NCBI GenBank assembly: GCA_012521875.1
Contig: JAAYLN010000006.1
Location: 1 to 44,913 of the forward strand
DNA from: Lentisphaerota bacterium
GTDB lineage: Bacteria > Verrucomicrobiota > Kiritimatiellia > RFP12 > JAAYLN01
Direction: 5' to 3'
DNA length: 44,913 nucleotides
The notes beneath the pieces were generated by a model. The model was not told the origin of the DNA and did no database searches. It saw only the letters and a list, made by a program, of their open reading frames with translations. Positions 6,419 through 34,833 of this stretch are shown in pieces (within the stretch, counting starts at the first letter, position 1; each line of letters begins with the position of its first letter). Both the position numbers and the translations under genes were made by a program.

Positions 6419-6460
6419 CGACAAAGTTACCGAGAAAGCTCGCGACAAAGTGGCGTCTCT
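6419..6460. repeat. 12-bp-period CGACAAAG module (copies also at 8456-8489, 13677-13707, 28440-28490, 29104-29140, 32262-32313)
   Basis: CGACAAAGTTACCGAGAAAGCTCGCGACAAAGTGGCGTCTC; reverse complement found at 28440 and 32262. Confidence 0.85.
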
Positions 6461-7480: not shown

Positions 7481-8410
7481 GTGGAAAACGGCTACTTCGA
7501 CCTTCAGGTAAACGGCTACGGCGGCGTCGATCTCAATAGTGACGGCATCACCGACGACGAGATCGAGCAGATGTGCGCGCACCTCGCGGATGACGGAGTG
7601 GACGGCATCCTGGCTACCATCATCACCGCCCCGGTTCCCGACATGGTACGGCGCATTGCCAGAGTCGTGGCCGCCCGCGAGGCGCGCCCCGCCATCCGTC
7701 AGCGCATCGCCGGCATCCACATCGAGGGACCCTTCATCAACCCGGCGGCCGGCTACCGCGGCGCCCACGATGCGCAGGCGATCATTCCGCCCGCGCTGGA
7801 CGAGGTCAAGCGCCTCCACGACGCCTGCGGCGGCCTGTTGCGCATCCTGACGCTGGCACCCGAATGCGACGAGGGCTTCGCGGCCACCCGCTGGCTGGCC
7901 GGTCAGGGCGTGGTGGTCTCGGCCGGCCACTGCGACCCATCGCTCGAGACGCTGCAGGGCGCGGCCGATGCCGGCCTCACGCTCTTCACCCACACGGGCA
8001 ACGGCTGTCCCATGCTGATGCACCGCCACGACAACGTCATCCAGCGCGCGCTCGCGCTGCACGACCGGCTGACCCTCTGCTTCATTGCCGACGGCGTACA
8101 CATCCCCTTCTTCGCACTGGGCAACTACCTGCGCGCCTGCGGCATTGAAAACGCCGTTGTCGTCACCGACGCCATGCAGGCGGCCGGCATGGGACCGGGG
8201 CTCTACGGTATCGGCGCCTTCCAGGTGCTGGTAGGCGAGGATCTGGCCGCCTGGGCACCGGACCGCTCGCATCTTGTCGGCTCGGCCGGCACGATGAAGC
8301 GCACCGCCGCCAACCTGCGCGACAAGATGGGCCTTGCCGAAGAGGATGTGAGGCGGCTGACCTGCATCAATCCGCGGCGCGTGCTGGAGAGGTGCGCCAA
8401 GGGCGCGTGA
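7481..8410 (+). CDS. nagA: N-acetylglucosamine-6-phosphate deacetylase
   Basis: FDLQVNGYGG, GIHIEGPF, TLAPE, SAGH, THTGNG, IADGVH, VTDAM; GTG start. Confidence 0.88.
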   Translation: MENGYFDLQVNGYGGVDLNSDGITDDEIEQMCAHLADDGVDGILATIITAPVPDMVRRIARVVAAREARPAIRQRIAGIHIEGPFINPAAGYRGAHDAQAIIPPALDEVKRLHDACGGLLRILTLAPECDEGFAATRWLAGQGVVVSAGHCDPSLETLQGAADAGLTLFTHTGNGCPMLMHRHDNVIQRALALHDRLTLCFIADGVHIPFFALGNYLRACGIENAVVVTDAMQAAGMGPGLYGIGAFQVLVGEDLAAWAPDRSHLVGSAGTMKRTAANLRDKMGLAEEDVRRLTCINPRRVLERCAKGA

Positions 8411-8422
8411 GGAAGCGACTGC

Positions 8423-8489
8423 ACACTTAGTCGCCTTACGCCTACTCTTTCGTTTTCGACAAAGTGACCGACAAAGCTCGCGACAAAGT
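8423..8489. repeat. Repeat modules at the left edge of the methylase island
   Basis: ACACTTAGTCGCC (same unit as the 29247 array) followed by three CGACAAAG units. Confidence 0.8.
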
Positions 8490-8576
8490 AGGGGCTGCGG
8501 TCTCACTCGCTCTCCATGCACCATCCGCGCGCCTCCCCTGTCCACTGGCCGATTACCGTCAACCACAACTATGTGT

Positions 8577-8605
8577 TTGAGACTCGCCTTCAGATTGCCT
8601 ATAAT
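8577..8605 (+). promoter_or_regulatory. sigma70-type promoter of the methylase operon
   Basis: TTGAGA (8577-8582), 17-nt spacer, TATAAT (8600-8605). Confidence 0.7.
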
Positions 8606-8661
8606 CGGTCTGAATTGATGCCACAAGAGTGACACAATCGTGTTTCGAGGGTATTATTAGC

Positions 8662-11600
8662 ATGGGCGCGAACATGGAAATATACAAGAGTCTGGACGCT
8701 GTGTATGCCCAGCCCCGACTCGCCGGCTACATTCGCGTTCTGGAACGAGCCTGGAGCGAGCTCGATCTCTCGTCTGTGCTCTGCGTCAATCATGTTCCAA
8801 CGCTCTACCGCATTGACAGCAAGAGTATTGTAGAGCCCGATACGCTTATTAAGCTGCATCGGCGGTTCTGGAATCAGGGTGTTGCTCGTGTCCTGCTCGT
8901 AGTTGACCCGAAAACCGCCTATCTCCTTTCCGGGCTCCAATGGCCACTTCAAGGAGGCCACCCCAAGATTACCGATCCGGATGACGCCGACTCACCGCTG
9001 CTGGATTTTCTAGAGCTTGCCACATTCTCGGAACAGGAACAGACAATCATCGAATCAGTCCGCACGGGCGATTTCTACCGGGTTTACAAAGATAAGTTTA
9101 AACAGACGCTGGCTGTAGATCAGTCCTTAACCGAGAACCTGATGAGCCTGCGCAACCACCTGATCCGTTCCGAAGGCGGGCCGAAGTTGCCGGATAATAT
9201 CGCCCATAATTTTATCTGCCGCTTGTTGTTTGTCTGCTATCTCGTGGATCGGGGCATTGTTACGCTTGATCGTTACCCCGGCTTGCATTTGCACGAAGCC
9301 CTGTTCAAGATTGGAGATGCGGCACGCGCGCGCGATTACTTATATAAATTGTTCAAACGGCTCAAGCACGAGTTCAATGGCAGCATGTTTGACGCCGATC
9401 TCGACGCCGAGAAGGAATATCTTACTGCAGAGCGTATCAAAGCCGTCATTGACTTGCTTCGAGGAGACGAACCGGACACCCGCCAGCCATCACTGGGTTT
9501 CTGGGCCTACGACTTCAAGTTCATCCCAATTGAAACGATCAGCGGCATCTACGAGGGGCTACTGCCAAGACGCGGCAAAAGGGATCAGGGCGTCTATTAC
9601 ACGCCGCGCTTTCTAGCCGAGTTTGCCATCGATGTCGCCATTGGCGACAATAAGGATTGGCATAAGCTCCGCTATCTGGATCCCTCCTGCGGATCCGGTG
9701 TCTTCCTCGTGACGCTGTTCAACCGCCTAGCCACCTGGTGGGAGATCGAGCACCGTGACCAGGAGGAGGATGCCAACTACAATGAGAGGAAGGATGATGC
9801 CCTGCGAAAAATCCTGCGCAACCAAATCTGCGGCATCGACCGTAATGAGCAAGCCGGCATGCTGGCATGCTTCAGCCTCCATGTGGCATTGCTCGACGCC
9901 TTTAGTCCGGCGACGATCAGTGAATACATTAAGCAATCGAAGTTCCGTAAGCTTCCCAAGCTTATGGAAAGCCCCCCGGCTCATGCGGACGACGAAAACT
10001 ATCTCCCGGTCATCCACACGCGTGACACCCTCAATCTTCAGACGGGTAATGACGAGGCTTTCAGGAACAGATTCGATGTGGTTATCGGCAACCCTCCATG
10101 GGGTGGTAAGGCACGGGGTTCGGGGGATATCGCGTTCCAATTTCTTGAAGGCGTAAAGCCGTTTACCAAACACGGCGGCAGCGCCTGTCTATTGCTCCCC
10201 TCGCGCCTCTTTCTCAACCTCAGCAGCAATGACTTTCAGGCGCAATGGCTTGCCAGAAACACGTTGCATCGCGTCGTCCAGTTGGCGGACTATAGATTTG
10301 TCCTCTTCTCCGAGGCGCAGTGCCCCTGCATGATTATAGCGTTCAGTCCCGAACCGCCAGCCAAGTCAACGCATGAGTTCCTGTACGACGCCCCCAAGTT
10401 CAACATCGCCTCACGGCGGCAGGGACTAGTGCTAATCAGCGAAGGGGATCGCAAGAGCGTTCCGCAGGCCAGGCTGCGGCAGGCTGCCGAACAGGGAATG
10501 GCGCCCATCACTTGGAAACGCCTTTTCTGGGGCACCCCGCGCGACCAGCGTTTTCTCAACCATCTGGATACATTCCCTCGCTTACGTGAGCGGTTTGCTG
10601 ATCGAAAGTCTGGCTGGATAAAGGGACAAGGATTCATCCCGGACAAACGCGACAGGAAGGGTGTTCTGCCACGTCGCTGGTGGGAGGATAGTCATCTTTT
10701 TCTCAATGCAAAATCCCGTCGGTTCGGAACAGACAACATCCTGTTTGAGCAGGATTGTGAACAGGTAGGCCACCAGTTTGAGGTGCTGTATCGTTCGCCA
10801 GACAGGGAGTTGTTCCTGCCGCCCGCGATTCTTTTCAACCAAGGGTTCACGAAGTTCGTCTATACCGACTTCCCGGTTCTCTTTCGCGATGCCATTCAAG
10901 CCATCCACGCCCCCGCCGGAGAGGAGGATCTGTTGCTATTTCTGCTGGCGTTCCTGCAATCCGATCTGGCCTTGTATTGCTGTTTCCACAACAGCTCGAT
11001 GCTTGGCATAGAACGCGATGTCGTGCGCTTGGAGGAGGTTCTCGATCTGCCGTTTCCTCTTCCTGCTGATGCCCCGTCAAAACAAGCCGCGCAGATCGTG
11101 CACAAGGTTGCCAACCGTTTGCGTGGTGAGAAGGCAACTCTACTGCGCCTGAAGCGGAATATGGATGACGCAGCATGGCTGGATGTGCGGGCGGCGCGAA
11201 CACCCGGTCTCAAGCAGTTCCTTGATGAGATGGTCTGCCAATATTTTGACCTTGCCGAGTCAGCGTGCTGGCTGATAGCCGATACGGTTAATGTGTTCAA
11301 GCCAAGCTCGACCCCGACTACTGCCGACAAGTTCGACCTGCCGACGCTTTTGCCGGTTCAAGAGGCGGGCGAGGTTTCGGGATATACCGACGGCCTGCAA
11401 GCCTATGCCGATGCCCTTGTTTCGACGCTCAACGGCTGGGCCGAAGAACAGAACTCCGGCTGGCGTGTCGCCGCGCAAGGTGGCGTCGATGCCGCGAGCG
11501 GGCTTGCGTTGGTTTCGCTCACCTTGGTTCGCACACCGGAACCATACCAGGATGTGCCACTGACTGGTTCAGTCTGGAGACGACTGTTCGACACTTTTGC

Positions 11601-11766
11601 CGAACAGAGGGTCATTGAGCGCTACGAGCGACGGATATTCGGTTTCGATGGCGACACCTTCCACGTGCTGCGCCCGATGTCGCTTGCGAACTGGACGCGC
11701 ACTGCCGCGCTCAACGATGCAGACGAACTGTTCGCCATGCTCCAGACAGGACGGAGGGCACACTGA
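8662..11766 (+). CDS. Large N6-adenine DNA methyltransferase (Eco57I/type IIG-like architecture)
   Basis: GVYYTP, LDPSCGSGVFL (motif I), VIGNPPW (motif IV), FNGSMF helical region, long C-terminal putative TRD; start ATG 8662 after GAGGG (ORF track starts at GTG 8629); visibly lower GC than flanks. Confidence 0.9.
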   Translation: MGANMEIYKSLDAVYAQPRLAGYIRVLERAWSELDLSSVLCVNHVPTLYRIDSKSIVEPDTLIKLHRRFWNQGVARVLLVVDPKTAYLLSGLQWPLQGGHPKITDPDDADSPLLDFLELATFSEQEQTIIESVRTGDFYRVYKDKFKQTLAVDQSLTENLMSLRNHLIRSEGGPKLPDNIAHNFICRLLFVCYLVDRGIVTLDRYPGLHLHEALFKIGDAARARDYLYKLFKRLKHEFNGSMFDADLDAEKEYLTAERIKAVIDLLRGDEPDTRQPSLGFWAYDFKFIPIETISGIYEGLLPRRGKRDQGVYYTPRFLAEFAIDVAIGDNKDWHKLRYLDPSCGSGVFLVTLFNRLATWWEIEHRDQEEDANYNERKDDALRKILRNQICGIDRNEQAGMLACFSLHVALLDAFSPATISEYIKQSKFRKLPKLMESPPAHADDENYLPVIHTRDTLNLQTGNDEAFRNRFDVVIGNPPWGGKARGSGDIAFQFLEGVKPFTKHGGSACLLLPSRLFLNLSSNDFQAQWLARNTLHRVVQLADYRFVLFSEAQCPCMIIAFSPEPPAKSTHEFLYDAPKFNIASRRQGLVLISEGDRKSVPQARLRQAAEQGMAPITWKRLFWGTPRDQRFLNHLDTFPRLRERFADRKSGWIKGQGFIPDKRDRKGVLPRRWWEDSHLFLNAKSRRFGTDNILFEQDCEQVGHQFEVLYRSPDRELFLPPAILFNQGFTKFVYTDFPVLFRDAIQAIHAPAGEEDLLLFLLAFLQSDLALYCCFHNSSMLGIERDVVRLEEVLDLPFPLPADAPSKQAAQIVHKVANRLRGEKATLLRLKRNMDDAAWLDVRAARTPGLKQFLDEMVCQYFDLAESACWLIADTVNVFKPSSTPTTADKFDLPTLLPVQEAGEVSGYTDGLQAYADALVSTLNGWAEEQNSGWRVAAQGGVDAASGLALVSLTLVRTPEPYQDVPLTGSVWRRLFDTFAEQRVIERYERRIFGFDGDTFHVLRPMSLANWTRTAALNDADELFAMLQTGRRAH

Positions 11767-12491
11767 TGAACTCCGCATCTCCCCCTCAATCCTGGCGAAT
11801 CAAACTGTTTCCCAAATCATATGTCCCCGTCCTGCTCCAGGACATCCTGGATGCCTTGCCCAGTCTCAAATCGCCGCCAGAAGATGTTACACGCCCAGAG
11901 GAGCACCTGAACCGACAACTTTATACCCTTCTCATGCGAAACCGGCGCTACTACAGCGGTCCGATAGAACCCAGTTACGAGCACTGGTTGCCGGATCTGA
12001 AGGGACGGGTTGACTTCTGTTTCAAGTGCGGTAAAGGAACAGAGACTTACTTTGCGGTCGAGGCCAAGCGACTCTTCATCACCTACCCAGGCGGGAAGAA
12101 GGCCGATCTGCTACAAGCCTACATTGACGAAGGGATGATGCGCTTCATCAAAGGCCGCTACGCCCCATTTCAGGAATCCAGCGCCATGCTGGCATACGTG
12201 TTTGACGCAACCTGTGCCGAGGCACGCAGCAGGGTCAAGGCCGCCATTGAAAACCGCCGTCACGAACTACGCCTGACGGCTGATTTCGGGACAAGTGCGC
12301 TCAAGGTAAAACCTCCTATCGACGAAACCCGCCACGTACTGGAATCAAAACCCTTTGTAATCTATCACATTTTCGCACAGCTATCCCCTCGACATGCGGA
12401 TAATCTTGGCGTCTTGGCGGTTAATCACCTGTGTGCGGACGGCACGGAAGTCGTTCATCCTGTCTCATCCGGGCATCGCGAAGAGCGATAG
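11766..12491 (+). CDS. Hypothetical PD-(D/E)XK-like nuclease-fold protein
   Basis: E...GRVDF...FAVEAKRL followed by YIDEGMMRF..GRYA; TGATG coupling to the methylase. Confidence 0.65.
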   Translation: MNSASPPQSWRIKLFPKSYVPVLLQDILDALPSLKSPPEDVTRPEEHLNRQLYTLLMRNRRYYSGPIEPSYEHWLPDLKGRVDFCFKCGKGTETYFAVEAKRLFITYPGGKKADLLQAYIDEGMMRFIKGRYAPFQESSAMLAYVFDATCAEARSRVKAAIENRRHELRLTADFGTSALKVKPPIDETRHVLESKPFVIYHIFAQLSPRHADNLGVLAVNHLCADGTEVVHPVSSGHREER

Positions 12492-13346
12492 CAGGCTGCT
12501 GGCGTTGAAGAGGGCGTGCATCACGATGGGTGTCAGCAGGTGCCCGGTCGCGATATAGCCCAGACCGCAGCCCAGGCCCACGCCCACTAGCGGCAGCAGG
12601 CTTCCGGCATGCATATGCAGCGCGGCGAAGAGTAGTGAAGACAGCAGCAGGGCGCGCCATGGTCGCATACCGTGACGCGCCAGCACGGGCAGCAGTATGC
12701 CCCGGAAGGCCACCTCCTCAACCACCGGCGCCACCACCAGCGCCGTAAAGATCACTACAACGACCCACGCCCAGCCGAGCTGGCCACCAGCCAGCCACTG
12801 CATCGCCTGTTGCTGCTCCAGCGGCCAGGCTATCCGTTGCAGTACGAGGGCGCCGCACAAGGCCAGCAGCCAGACCGGCATCAGCAGCATGATGCCCCCG
12901 CGCAGACCGGCACCAACGGCCGCGCGCACACTCTCCCGCCGGTCGCTGCCGGCCGCGCCCAAAAGCAGGCGCCAGCCATGCTCCGCATGGCGCATGCAAA
13001 CGGCAATCGCCAACACCATCAGGAGCGTCTGCAGCAAACTGCCCGAAAGCAACGAGAATAGCGAGGGCGGCAACGCTGCGGCCGCTGACTCAGGCTGCAG
13101 CATCTGCAGTGCCGTCAGCGCAAGTCCCCAGCCAAAGACCAGCAGCAGCGGCCAGACATCCAGGCCGGCGGCCGGCAAGGCCGCCAGCCGCTTGCTCACC
13201 CGCCGCCGAGCCGCGCCCCAGTCCGCGAACACCCGCACCAGTTGCTGCCAAAGCAGCACCACCCCCAGCATCCCCAGCACAAGGATGAGCCAGATGGCCA
13301 CCACGAACGGCGGCGCGGGGAGTTGAACTTCAGGGGTGAGGGGCAT
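12465..13346 (-). CDS. CPBP (CAAX/Abi) family intramembrane glutamic endopeptidase
   Basis: APVVEEVAFRG, FAALH, IVMHALFN motifs; many TM helices. Confidence 0.88.
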   Translation of the reverse strand: MPLTPEVQLPAPPFVVAIWLILVLGMLGVVLLWQQLVRVFADWGAARRRVSKRLAALPAAGLDVWPLLLVFGWGLALTALQMLQPESAAAALPPSLFSLLSGSLLQTLLMVLAIAVCMRHAEHGWRLLLGAAGSDRRESVRAAVGAGLRGGIMLLMPVWLLALCGALVLQRIAWPLEQQQAMQWLAGGQLGWAWVVVVIFTALVVAPVVEEVAFRGILLPVLARHGMRPWRALLLSSLLFAALHMHAGSLLPLVGVGLGCGLGYIATGHLLTPIVMHALFNASSLLSLFAMPG

Positions 13347-13350
13347 TATT

Positions 13351-13973
13351 AGGGTTCAGGGTTCAGTGGAGCCGCTGCCCTGCAGGGCGGCGGCAGTAGC
13401 AGTAGGCAGTAGCAGTAGGCAGTTATTGCGACCACACAGTGGCTCGCAATTTAGAGGGTAAAAGCGCTGCGCTGCCCTTTCGCCGCCCAGTGGCACACCT
13501 TGTCTCAACACCTTGTCTCCACACTTTGTCTCCACGCTTTGTCGGCTACGCTTCGTCCCCCCACTTTGTCCCTACGCTTTGTCGAAAGTCGTCTCCGGAG
13601 GCGGATACGGAGATCCGCCACAACGAAAAAGGCTCTGGGCGGGCGCGAGCCGCGGAGAAGTCTTGGGTAAGGGTTCACTTTGTCGTTTTGTCGGTAACTT
13701 TATCGGAAGCAGTCTCTGTTGGCGGACACGGAGGTCGGCCCGACAAAGCCGGGCGCTGGAGGTGTCGCGGGTTAGGTGCTATCATACCGTATCCCCGCCC
13801 CCACGGCCAACCCGAAACCCGAAAGCCGGGAGCCGAAAGCCGGGAGTCTCTTGCAAAACCATCGTGGCATGGGCGTCCCGCCCATGGATGGATCACGGGC
13901 AGGATGCCCGTGCCACATGCCCGCAGGCAAGGGTTCCGGCTGAAGCGCCCGTGGCATGGGCGTCCCGCCCATG
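13351..13973. repeat. Composite repeat nest A
   Basis: In order: GGGTTCA 7-mers, GC palindrome, GGCAGTA 7-mers, TTGCGACCAC hairpin, 13-mer ACACCTTGTCTCC array (13495-13585), GGCGGATACGGAGATCCGCC hairpin, TTTGTCG module, CCGAAA repeats, REP-like GTGGCATGGGCGTCCCGCCCATG (13864-13916, 13951-13973). Confidence 0.9.
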
Positions 13974-14012
13974 GCCGGATAAAAAAAAGATGAAAAAAGA
14001 GCGCTACACCTA

Positions 14013-28439: not shown

Positions 28440-29424
28440 GAGACGCCACTTTGACGCGAGCTTTATCGGTAACTTTGTCGCCCTTGTCGCCTGCTGTCGA
28501 TTATTTCTCACAGAGGCACGGAGGCACAGAGGCGCGGAGGAGTTCTAAAGTTCGGAAGTTCTAAAGTTTGGCTGCCGCCTGTACCGAGCCGCCCTGCTGG
28601 TGTCGAACCGCCAAGACGCCAAGGCCGCCAAGGGGATTTGATTTAGATTTGTGATTTGCGACTTGTGACTTGTGATTTGGCAGTGGCTTCCCGTTCGCTC
28701 CCGATGCGCTCTGGAGCCCGCGGTCTCCGCGGTGCATTGATGCGGCGCATGATTGTCGTACGTTACCGCACGTTCCATCACCTATCCGCCTATGCGGGAA
28801 CTGCCCCAATGTGGCGCGGACATTCCTGTCTGCGCACGTCCACGAGGGCAGACAGGAATGTCTGCCCCACACTAGCACGTTCCATCGCTGCGGCTAGCCG
28901 GGACTGCGTCGCCGCACCTGTGCTGGCGCGCCTTTGCGGAAGCTTCCCAAAGACGCGACGACAATCGGCGACGGCCTATCATCCGGCGAAAAGACGCCTT
29001 ATTCCATGACTATGTCCCGCCCCTTCAGGGCTAGTCATTTTTTTGCCAGTTACCCAGGGCGTTGCCCTGGGCTGGTATATCGCGCCCCTTCAGGGCTTTC
29101 ATCAACTTTGTCGCGAGCTTTGTCGTTAACTTTGTCGAAAGCTTAAGATTTAGCGGGTGGATGAAGTGTGCCGTTTAAGAGTGAGTTTAAGAGTGGGATT
29201 AAGTGGGTGCTGCGCGCCTACCACCTTGTCTCAACACCTTGTCTCCACACTTAGTCGCCGTACACTTAGTCGTCTTACACTTAGTCGCCGCACTTAGTCT
29301 TCCCTCTGTCTGTCCCTGAATTTCGACTAAGTGTTCGGACTAAGCGTGAAGCGACTAAGTGTGAGGACTAAGTGTGGGGGACTAAGTGTACCGCGAGTCG
29401 CACCAGAACAAGCTCAGGGTTCAG
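28440..29424. repeat. Composite repeat nest C
   Basis: TTTGTCG module, CACAGAGG 9-mers, TTCTAAAG 8-mers, CGCCAAG 9-mers, GATTTGT 7-mers, REP doublet 28810-28871, CCCAGGGCGTTGCCCTGGG element 29009-29097, TTAAG module 29145-29220, 13-mers, inverted ACACTTAGTC array 29247-29389. Confidence 0.92.
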
Positions 29425-32199: not shown

Positions 32200-32549
32200 T
32201 TCAGGGGTTCAGGGTTCAGCCGCGCCACTGGCGACCGACGGTCGCCAGTTAGAACAGGCCAGAGACGCCACTTTGTCGCTTTGTCGGTAACGTTGTCGGT
32301 AACGTTGTCGAAAGCTAAGAGTAAGCGGGGTGGAATAAGACCAACATGCCGTTTAAGAGTGAGATTAAGAGAGGGTTTAAGTGGGTGCTTCGCGCTTACA
32401 CCTTGTTTCCACAGAAGCGGCCGAGGTTGAGCATCCAGGCATTAGGTTTGATCCTTGCTGGATACTACTACGGTAGCGACGATCAAGCTGTAGAATTGGA
32501 CGATAATGCCCAGATATTTAAGCTCACGTAAAGGCGCGAAGGCGCGAAG
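32200..32549. repeat. Composite repeat nest D
   Basis: GGGTTCA 7-mers, TGGCGACCGACGGTCGCCA hairpin, TTGTCG module, TTAAG module plus 13-mer (32317-32412), AAGGCGCG 9-mers. Confidence 0.85.
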
Positions 32550-33650: not shown

Positions 33651-34833
33651 CGACAAAGTGTTGAGACAAGGTGTGGAGACAAGGTGTAAGTGCGAAGCAC
33701 CCACTTAAACCCACTCTTAAACTCTTAATCGGCACACTTAAACCACCCGCTTACTCTTCCGCTGCGACTATGATGGGACGAATGGGACGTAGGTACGACG
33801 GGATTTTCTCCACCCCATGCGCTCCCCATCTGCACGCGGCGGGGACGCCGCGTCTACCAGACGGCACTGCCTACTGCTACTGCCCACTGCCTACTGCCAT
33901 TGCCGCCGTCCTGCAGGGCAGCGGCAATACTGAACCCTTACCCCTGCACAAACCGGAGGTTTATGCAAGCGTCTCCCGGTATATTAGTTATCCGCTTCCA
34001 ATACTGCAAGGTTTGTGTAATCGGATGGAGCGATGGAGCGAAAAAGCACCAACGGCGCGCCCCATCCCAGCCTAGTACTGGGGTGAAGCACTAGGACTGT
34101 CGGCGAATTGAGAAAACAAGGGCTGGAAGCCCGGCCTATCATCCGGACATCAGCCCGTTTTCCCCGAACTATATCCCGCCCCTTCAGGGCTAGTCATTTT
34201 TTGCCCCTTTCCCCAGGGCGTTGCCCTGGGCTGGTATATCACGCCCCTTCAGGGCTGCCCCAGAGTGGCGCGGACATTCCTGTCTGCGCGGGACTGCGCG
34301 GGCAGGCAGGAATGCCTGCCCCACACTAGTCTGAAACACCATCAGCCGCTCTCTCTCTCGCTTTCGACAAAGCGTAGGGACGAAGTGCAGAGACGAAGCG
34401 TAGCCGACAAAGTGCGGAGACAAAGTGTGGAGACAAGGTGTTGATTGAGACAAGGTGTTGAGACAAAGTGTAAGTGCGAAGCACGCACTTAAACCCTCTC
34501 TTAATCTCACTCTTAATCGGCACGCTTAAACCACCCGCTTAATCTTCCGCTGCGGCTATGATGAGACAAATGGGACGCAGGTGTGGCGGTGCCGTTCTCC
34601 ACCCCATGCGCCCACATCTGCACGCGGCGGGGACGCCGCGTCTACCAGACGGCACTGCCTACTGCCACTGCCTACTGCCTCTGGCACCGGGCGGCGAAAG
34701 AGCAGCGCAGCGCTTTTACCCTCTAAATTGCGAGCCACTGTGTGGTCGCAATAATCGTCCCTGCCCACTGCCTACTGCCACTGCCACTGCCTACTGCCAC
34801 TGCCTACTGGCCGCCGCCCTGCGGGGCGGCGGC
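33651..34833. repeat. Composite repeat nest E, containing a ~220-bp direct duplication
   Basis: 33661-33877 matches 34445-34665; also CCCAGGGCGTTGCCCTGGG element 34168-34256, REP doublet 34265-34325, reverse 13-mer array 34364-34471, reverse TTGCGACCAC hairpin 34702-34754, TACTGCC arrays. Confidence 0.92.

Follow-up and report, generated by a model that had tools for sequence, protein, structure and literature searches.

A type IIG-like methylase gene and its coupled PD-(D/E)XK nuclease gene: probably an unrecognised two-part restriction system in many bacterial phyla

A stretch of 44,913 nt from contig JAAYLN010000006.1 of a Lentisphaerota bacterium (assembly GCA_012521875.1; called the window here, with all coordinates given on its full length) was found to carry two coupled open reading frames (ORFs), the first encoding a 1034-amino-acid (aa) N6-adenine methylase built like a type IIG restriction enzyme (ORF1) and the second a stand-alone protein of 241 aa predicted to be a PD-(D/E)XK nuclease (ORF2). 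The pair is probably an unrecognised two-part restriction system, whose genes travel together in many bacterial phyla. According to the available text of PMC3874165, type IIG enzymes are defined by a restriction (R) domain that is fixed at the N-terminus; in ORF1 this position is held by a domain with a nuclease fold and no conserved catalytic residues. The reading that we favour, with confidence somewhat above even, is that of a type IIG-derived restriction-modification (R-M) module in which cleavage was moved to a separate, coupled PD-(D/E)XK subunit. The two-gene architecture is a variation on type IIG-like R-M rather than a new kind of system. The features of the pair are given below.

8662..11766, + strand: ORF1, ATG start, 1034 aa; in-frame GTG alternative at 8629
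8662..9105, + strand: ORF1 aa 1-148, pseudo-nuclease domain with a PD-(D/E)XK-like fold; near-invariant P46, W70, N71 and P95
9106..9561, + strand: ORF1 aa 149-300, helical connector resembling the N-terminal helical domain of HsdM, MmeI and PglX
9562..10341, + strand: ORF1 aa 301-560, methyltransferase core with YYTP (9595-9606), DPSCGSG (9679-9699) and NPPW (10090-10101), motifs invariant in family alignment A1
10582..10941, + strand: ORF1 aa 641-760, hypervariable block within the presumed target-recognition region, switching between close relatives
11092..11763, + strand: ORF1 aa 811-1034, conserved C-terminal domain with invariant W1011, T1012, N1018 and D1019
11753..11768, + strand: coupling junction, GGAGG, 8 nt, then an ATG overlapping the TGA of ORF1 (TGATG)
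11766..12491, + strand: ORF2, 241 aa, predicted stand-alone PD-(D/E)XK nuclease
11898-11900, 12012-12014 and 12060-12068, + strand: ORF2 catalytic codons for E45, D83 and E99-A-K101, respectively

A conserved gene pair

Related loci were compared in the best 80 of at least 558 confirmed stretches in species-representative genomes, which, judging from the record titles, came from more than a dozen phyla and included one archaeon. At 72 of these 80 loci, the ORF that directly follows the methylase in the same orientation matched the ORF2 profile, and the remaining eight end at a contig edge within the methylase, so that the pairing was complete (72 of 72) where downstream DNA exists. A reverse search that started from ORF2 and covered 401 genomes of the window's phylum returned ten places in nine genomes, nine of which had a member of the ORF1 family directly upstream, distant ORF2 relatives included. 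The conserved co-occurrence for which an earlier, sequence-only reading of this DNA by a model (the first-pass annotation) had proposed a neighbourhood survey was thus observed in both directions. Among the 68 loci whose methylase ORF is uninterrupted, the two genes overlapped by 4 nt at 33 and by 1 nt at nine (crude ORF calls). The two proteins have also diverged together, with a Pearson correlation of r = 0.92 between their pairwise identities (2211 comparisons among 67 pairs). Decay-like loci were seen as well: ORF2 was in two pieces in L012 and L070, and no uninterrupted methylase ORF abutted ORF2 in L012, L029, L032 and L051, which reflects either a frameshift or an assembly error.

The first-pass annotation had described a methylase of about 1034 aa with YYTP, DPSCGSG and NPPW motifs, coupled by TGATG to a second gene for 241 aa, both genes being lower in GC than their flanks and preceded by a near-consensus promoter, and all of this was found in the sequence. 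The three motifs are present on translation, and the junction between the genes reads GGAGGGCACACTGATG, with one base common to the TGA stop and the ATG. The GC content is 0.53-0.58 at 9-12 kb and 0.60-0.69 in the flanks, and the promoter-like site (TTGAGA-17-TATAAT) matches 11 of 12 positions. The ATG form of ORF1 is identical to database protein P0021, and the nearest relatives share that start. No terminator-like site was seen 3' of ORF2 in the site scan.

Domain anatomy and specificity

The predicted active site of ORF2 was invariant or nearly so: D83, E99 and K101 were present in all 145 relatives and E45 in 142, and the same catalytic residues were kept in an 86-sequence alignment (A2). 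These are the residues that had been picked out in the first-pass annotation; its spacing of 13 residues was wrong, the actual arrangement being D83-x15-E99. The AlphaFold2 (AF2) model of ORF2, with a predicted local distance difference test score (pLDDT) of 89.4, matched OkrAI (Z 8.7), BglII (8.3), BstYI (7.7), BamHI (7.2) and McrC (6.5), and PD-(D/E)XK nucleases made up the majority of the 34 chains matched at Z of at least 5. Together with the D...ExK present in 145 of 145 relatives, these matches (OkrAI first) bear out the PD-(D/E)XK fold that had been proposed for this protein. By sequence, ORF2 had no match in Pfam, PADLOC or NCBIfam at E <= 1 and none in PHROG at E <= 0.01, it gave chance-level matches only against the PDB, and it was not found among 50,697 phage records. 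An exhaustive search returned 351 cluster representatives at E <= 1e-3, mostly of about 210 aa. The nearest structural clusters in the Atlas were all without a name, and in RefSeq plasmid records the relatives stand as 'hypothetical protein' beside 'N-6 DNA methylase'.

The core of the ORF2 family spans aa 10-205, and the remaining aa 206-241 form a poorly modelled tail that is absent from relatives. This tail contains a host repeat of about 35 bp (12404-12438, about aa 213-225), of which the assembly holds at least 40 copies with 86-97% identity, and it overlaps the 3' end of a convergent CAAX protease gene by 27 nt; it seems to be a read-through into host-type DNA. An origin of ORF2 as a split-off copy of the ORF1 N-domain was considered and rejected (hhalign probability 0.14%). 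In a cluster of Roc/COR-domain proteins (746 aa), a region structurally like ORF2 was seen (TM score, that is, template modelling score, of 0.60 by query), and an ORF2-like nuclease fold may be fused there to a signalling GTPase, although a match of this kind does not warrant a family name.

The first 310 residues of ORF1 were modelled from an alignment of 52 relatives (pLDDT 91.4). Within this model, aa 1-148 matched BsaWI (Z 7.2), the nuclease domain of BpuSI (7.0), EcoR124I HsdR (6.3) and DrdV (5.3), and this nuclease-fold domain occupies the usual nuclease position of a type IIG enzyme. No D, E or K was conserved in aa 1-148 among the 67 (or 52) family members. With P46, W70, N71 and P95 as the only near-invariant residues in the 67, no intact active site was found in the domain when it was checked for one. 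Of the 67 members, 45 have an acidic residue at position 43, 39 have one at position 52, and 43 have K or R at position 51; in the window's ORF1 and the three relatives nearest to it, position 43 is N and position 51 is I or V. The first-pass annotation had reported no catalytic motif in this region. A D-S-K tripeptide (RIDSK, residues 52-54 of P0021) does exist in the window's protein, but its positions are unconserved in the family (position 54 is K in only 10 of 67), so the label 'degenerate' stands. At the level of the family, a degenerate nuclease domain in ORF1 is supported.

Further along the chain, ORF1 has the motifs of a gamma-class N6-adenine methyltransferase, with DPSCGSG and NPPW invariant in A1, and was matched by the Pfam families Eco57I (8.7e-10) and N6_Mtase (1e-09), both above cut-off. 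The best PADLOC model was REase_MTase_IIG PDLC03623 (1.2e-57, residues 50-814), which is derived from REBASE and labelled 'type IIG', and relatives of ORF1 aligned to PDLC03623 and PDLC03603 over nearly their full length (up to 8-1018 of 1022 positions), these REBASE-derived models being without a curated cut-off. Because PADLOC 'type IIG' models already cover ORF1, automated tools would call the locus type IIG and overlook ORF2. PglX of PADLOC also matched (4.2e-18), and the matches in NCBIfam were limited to PglX of the bacteriophage exclusion (BREX) system, far below threshold (55 bits vs 400). Solved structures were matched by sequence in the methylase core only (type I M subunits, PglX, DrdV and MmeI), with an E of about 3e-3 for the type IIG/IIL structures. 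The model of residues 151-306 resembled MmeI (Z 10.4), the M subunits of StySJI (10.0) and EcoKI (9.9), and PglX (8.5). The ORF1 family comprises more than 1375 protein clusters at E <= 1e-3; in the best 120 of these, query coverage was 61-100% (at least 96% in nearly all).

No Pfam match to a target-recognition domain (TRD) was found in ORF1; the hypervariable block and the full-length alignment of relatives to the type IIG models suggest that a TRD lies C-terminal to the methylase in the same chain. Specificity was addressed in 71 pairs of related, and thus not independent, loci, all with an identity of 55% or more outside aa 641-720. Among them, 20 'switch' pairs had an identity of 33% within the block and 63% over the rest of ORF1, whereas in 31 non-switch pairs the corresponding values were 61% and 62%. 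The identity of ORF2 was 0.594 in the switch pairs and 0.571 in the non-switch pairs (regression coefficient -0.05), and the largest drop in any 20-aa window of ORF2 was not above 0.09 in this comparison. ORF2 is thus unchanged when aa 641-760 switches, which argues, indirectly and from sequence comparison, that ORF1 sets the specificity and that ORF2 would be a generic cutter. An independent specific nuclease must change with its methylase; since ORF2 does not, weight is shifted away from an ordinary type II pair and towards a generic nuclease that ORF1 guides.

Interpretation and comparison with known systems

The favoured reading describes a self-contained two-gene R-M module, which would have been acquired horizontally and would derive from a type IIG/IIL enzyme. 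In this module ORF1 would read the DNA sequence by its own recognition region (including aa 641-760) and methylate adenine, its N-terminal nuclease-fold domain having presumably lost its catalytic residues. ORF2 would be translated from the same message by way of the TGATG overlap and would act as the active PD-(D/E)XK nuclease; with no specificity of its own that tracks ORF1, it would most likely be recruited by ORF1 through direct binding, and would cut unmethylated DNA at or near ORF1 sites, presumably as a defence against phages. ORF2 may dock on ORF1 at its dead nuclease domain or at its conserved C-terminal domain. A more detailed version is put forward tentatively, as a possibility on the doubtful side: the dead domain of ORF1 would dock or control ORF2 in a heterodimeric cutter, with the swappable block aa 641-760 programming a generic nuclease. 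Such a system would be widespread in bacteria and at least one archaeon and mislabelled as type IIG, and one large clade of it would stand under a LexA-like repressor, tying restriction to DNA damage signalling.

Three other readings were weighed. It is unlikely that the locus is an ordinary type II R-M system, with ORF2 an independent homodimeric endonuclease of the BamHI/BglII kind and ORF1 merely its large cognate methylase, the two not interacting. The best fold matches of ORF2 (OkrAI, BglII, BstYI and BamHI, Z 7.2-8.7), which are similar in size, agree with such a system, as do a gene order and coupling typical of type II and the failure to find fused forms; the specificity of ORF2 would, however, have to shift in step with ORF1, and ORF2 is unchanged at the block switches. 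Moreover, the ORF2 family is tied to a single methylase family across many phyla (r = 0.92), which is unusual for type IIP, and a 1034-aa methylase with a dead nuclease domain and a conserved C-terminal domain exceeds what protection needs. ORF1 might instead still be a complete type IIG cutter with an atypical N-domain site, with ORF2 either in an accessory role, such as nicking the second strand in the manner of BspD6I, or as a separate nuclease that serves another purpose; this we hold to be distinctly improbable. The PADLOC type IIG models do align along the whole length of family members, the N-domain has its nuclease fold at the usual position, with acidic residues at 43 and 52 in 45 and 39 of 67 members, respectively, and K or R at 51 in 43, and PD-(D/E)XK residues can, in some enzymes, be recruited from elsewhere, according to the available text of PMC4081073. 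Against these stand the lack of any invariant catalytic candidate in the N-domain, as opposed to residues kept in 145 of 145 ORF2 relatives, the N43 and I/V 51 of the window's ORF1 and its three nearest relatives, and the presence of ORF2 at every testable locus, whatever the residues of the N-domain.

We give very little credence to the third reading, in which the pair does not restrict at all and is an epigenetic or addiction module, a non-cleaving BREX-like exclusion system, or a nuclease triggered otherwise (abortive infection, or linked to the SOS response). The helical domain and methylase core are common to ORF1 and PglX, one family member (L074) follows BrxF and BrxC, 18 loci have a LexA-like repressor just upstream, and the window copy lies among housekeeping genes. 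The window holds no PglZ, BrxC or other BREX genes, though, the NCBIfam BREX score is 55 bits vs 400, and it is the coupling of a methylase with an intact nuclease that defines R-M.

Several observations weigh against the favoured reading of a type IIG-derived module with a separate cutting subunit. The type IIP enzymes that head the fold matches of ORF2 are sequence-specific and work without a partner, Z values of 7-9 count as middling in the structure search (VIA), and Foldseek gave no match against the PDB at E <= 1e-3 for the models of the ORF1 N-terminal region and ORF2. Acidic residues at 43 and 52 and K/R at 51 are retained in most members of the ORF1 family, and therefore the N-domain may still be active in some relatives. 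The part played by aa 641-760 in specificity is one that we infer, and the locus pairs compared for it are related to one another. A search for fusions of ORF1 with ORF2, or for longer forms of ORF2, gave none (weak evidence), and the window's ORF2 has its odd 36-aa tail, which crosses a host repeat. No defence genes adjoin the window copy, the surroundings of which are housekeeping genes (Pfam annotation of 40 window ORFs). At the related loci, and in favour of the module, a PADLOC match at E <= 1e-20 was seen in at least one neighbour at 12 of 42 sampled loci (114 of 199 neighbour ORFs scanned), a raw count without a background control.

Among known systems, the type IIG/IIL enzymes (BpuSI, MmeI, DrdV and Eco57I) are similar to ORF1 in their domain order (N-terminal nuclease fold, helical connector, methylase, C-terminal recognition region, the last presumed in ORF1) and their length of about 1000 aa, and the REBASE-derived type IIG profiles of PADLOC match ORF1. 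They differ in that the N-domain of ORF1 is without conserved catalytic residues and a separate gene for an intact nuclease is always attached; whereas such enzymes have a catalytic D...(D/E)XK in the same chain, ORF1 has the fold and the residues are not conserved. The type IIT heterodimers (BspD6I/BstNBI, BtsI and BsrDI) offer another likeness. The available text of PMC4081073 describes, for BspD6I/BstNBI, a large subunit for recognition whose gene has that of a small, non-specific catalytic subunit downstream of it, and, for these heterodimers, a large subunit that reads the site and a small catalytic subunit of about 186 aa without specificity. As there, a small nuclease gene lies downstream of a large gene and is coupled to it, and ORF2 matches the BspD6I small subunit with Z 5.5. 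The large subunit of those enzymes is, however, an active nickase without a methylase, separate methylases protecting the host, whereas here the methylase is itself the large subunit and its nuclease domain looks inactive.

To the type IIP enzymes BamHI, BglII, OkrAI and BstYI, ORF2 is similar in fold (Z 7.2-8.7 over about 134-144 aligned residues) and in length; it differs in an identity of 9-13% with no match at the sequence level, in having a lysine in its D...E-x-K, and in showing no co-variation with the variable block of the methylase. A split type IIG pair, in which a nuclease and a IIG-like methylase from separate genes would act jointly, has been proposed for HVO_A0006/HVO_A0237 of Haloferax volcanii; in the available text of that source (PMC4389544) this rare nuclease is a transposon-made piece with homology to the N-terminal part of type IIG enzymes, which has transposases on its flanks and is not linked to the methylase. 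ORF2, in contrast, is unrelated in sequence to the N-domain of ORF1 (hhalign 0.14%), and the pairing is conserved and coupled. ORF1 also resembles PglX/PglXI of BREX in its helical domain and methylase core (PglX Z 8.5), the difference being that no PglZ, BrxC, BrxA or BrxL is present in the window. An assignment of the pair to one of the Hma-embedded candidates HEC-01 to HEC-09, as these are set out in the available text of 10.1101/2024.01.29.577857, was rejected.

The Pfam annotation showed no components of type I or III R-M systems in the window (HsdR or Res helicase-nuclease, HsdS), in agreement with the first-pass annotation, which had stated that an HsdR helicase and an HsdS were missing. 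That annotation had also not recognised the pair as a named system; this holds for ORF2, which is in no library searched, and for the pair, no such two-gene system having been found, but not for ORF1 alone, which falls under PADLOC 'type IIG'. In the full-text literature, with subscription journals, REBASE and DefenseFinder outside the scope of the search, no description of a two-gene architecture of this kind was found.

A large family (at least 558 places and more than 1375 clusters) is being read as single-chain type IIG enzymes, with the likely cutting subunit left as a 'hypothetical protein', and recognition of the pair would correct the annotation given by defence tools and add a new PD-(D/E)XK family. 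If the favoured reading is true, a fused restriction-modification-specificity (R-M-S) enzyme has passed cleavage on to a separate subunit while its former nuclease domain stayed in place as a scaffold. Provided that ORF2 cuts generically and is directed by ORF1, enzymes with new specificities could be sought through the variable block, as in the MmeI family. The LexA-like regulators described below suggest a connection of restriction with the SOS response that can be tested.

Neighbouring genes, insertion and expression

The defence genes that neighbour the related loci include other type IIG genes, HmaC, JetA/JetD, BrxF/BrxC, DrmD, AbiU and a dGTPase. In the Bacillota locus L074:2999-11419, a distant ORF1 relative and an ORF2-like partner lie directly after BrxF and BrxC, in what we take to be the place of PglXI in type 3 BREX; in L063 the pair adjoins an HmaC ATPase, and in L071 it is preceded by an HKD-SNF2 protein and a further type IIG-like gene. 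A small regulator gene was found just upstream at 31 of 72 loci (LexA-like at 18, HTH_11 at seven, MerR at four and HTH_3 at two), and none at the window copy; control proteins are common to many R-M systems. At the 18 LexA-like loci (L002-L011, L013-L017, L022, L026 and L042), the repressor gene (LexA_DNA_bind and Peptidase_S24) ends at the methylase start or a few bases from it. The position of a self-cleaving repressor ahead of such an operon suggests that DNA damage would induce these R-M-like genes.

In the window, the pair and its promoter lie on an inserted segment:

8388..12476 (right end about 12470), no strand: inserted island of about 4.1 kb that breaks collinearity with three congeners and contains the promoter and both genes
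8577..8605, + strand: sigma-70-like promoter upstream of ORF1, TTGAGA-17-TATAAT, 11 of 12 positions matched

The same flanking genes are 16-27 bp apart in the three congeners, which identifies the segment of about 4.1 kb as an insertion in the window, and ORF2 was present in one of 41 related genomes, namely the window's own. Repeats of at least 14 nt, whether direct or inverted, were not found at the flanks of the island, and the Pfam annotation of the window ORFs showed no integrase near the pair. Upstream of the island lie fatty-acid and glycolipid genes, and downstream the CAAX protease gene and an mraZ-mraW-ftsI-murE-murF cluster. Two flanking ORFs had no Pfam match (7481-8410, 309 aa, and 13439-13993, 184 aa), the first of which belongs to a multi-copy family (several paralogues per genome) and is conserved in 19 of 21 related genomes. 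A scan of 8300-12800 gave six promoter-like sites compared with 2.1 expected.

In three RNA libraries of two studies, contigs were found that span parts of ORF1 and ORF2; because DNA can occur in RNA libraries, these contigs are a hint only of expression. Such contigs were absent from 8494-8622, where the promoter lies, and a short piece carried by a repeat ends near 8490; since contigs cannot show starts, this empty stretch proves nothing. DNA nearly identical to 8400-12500 was present in metagenome runs of anaerobic-digester, bioreactor and biogas origin (12 studies), of which the 14 best DNA runs were flagged as possible sources of the assembly and so are not independent support.

The host genome carries an intergenic repeat, CGACAAAG at a spacing of 12 nt, which was found genome-wide and in the window at 6419-6450, 8457-8491, 13537-13748, 29106-29137, 32271-32286 and 34365-34412. 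The 3.96-Mb assembly contains 392 occurrences of CGACAAAG-N4-CGACAAAG, compared with 0 for the reversed control, and the 8-mer CGACAAAG occurs 20 times in the window compared with 1.09 expected. One copy of CGACAAAG sits between the left collinearity break and the ORF1 promoter, where the contig depth is very high.

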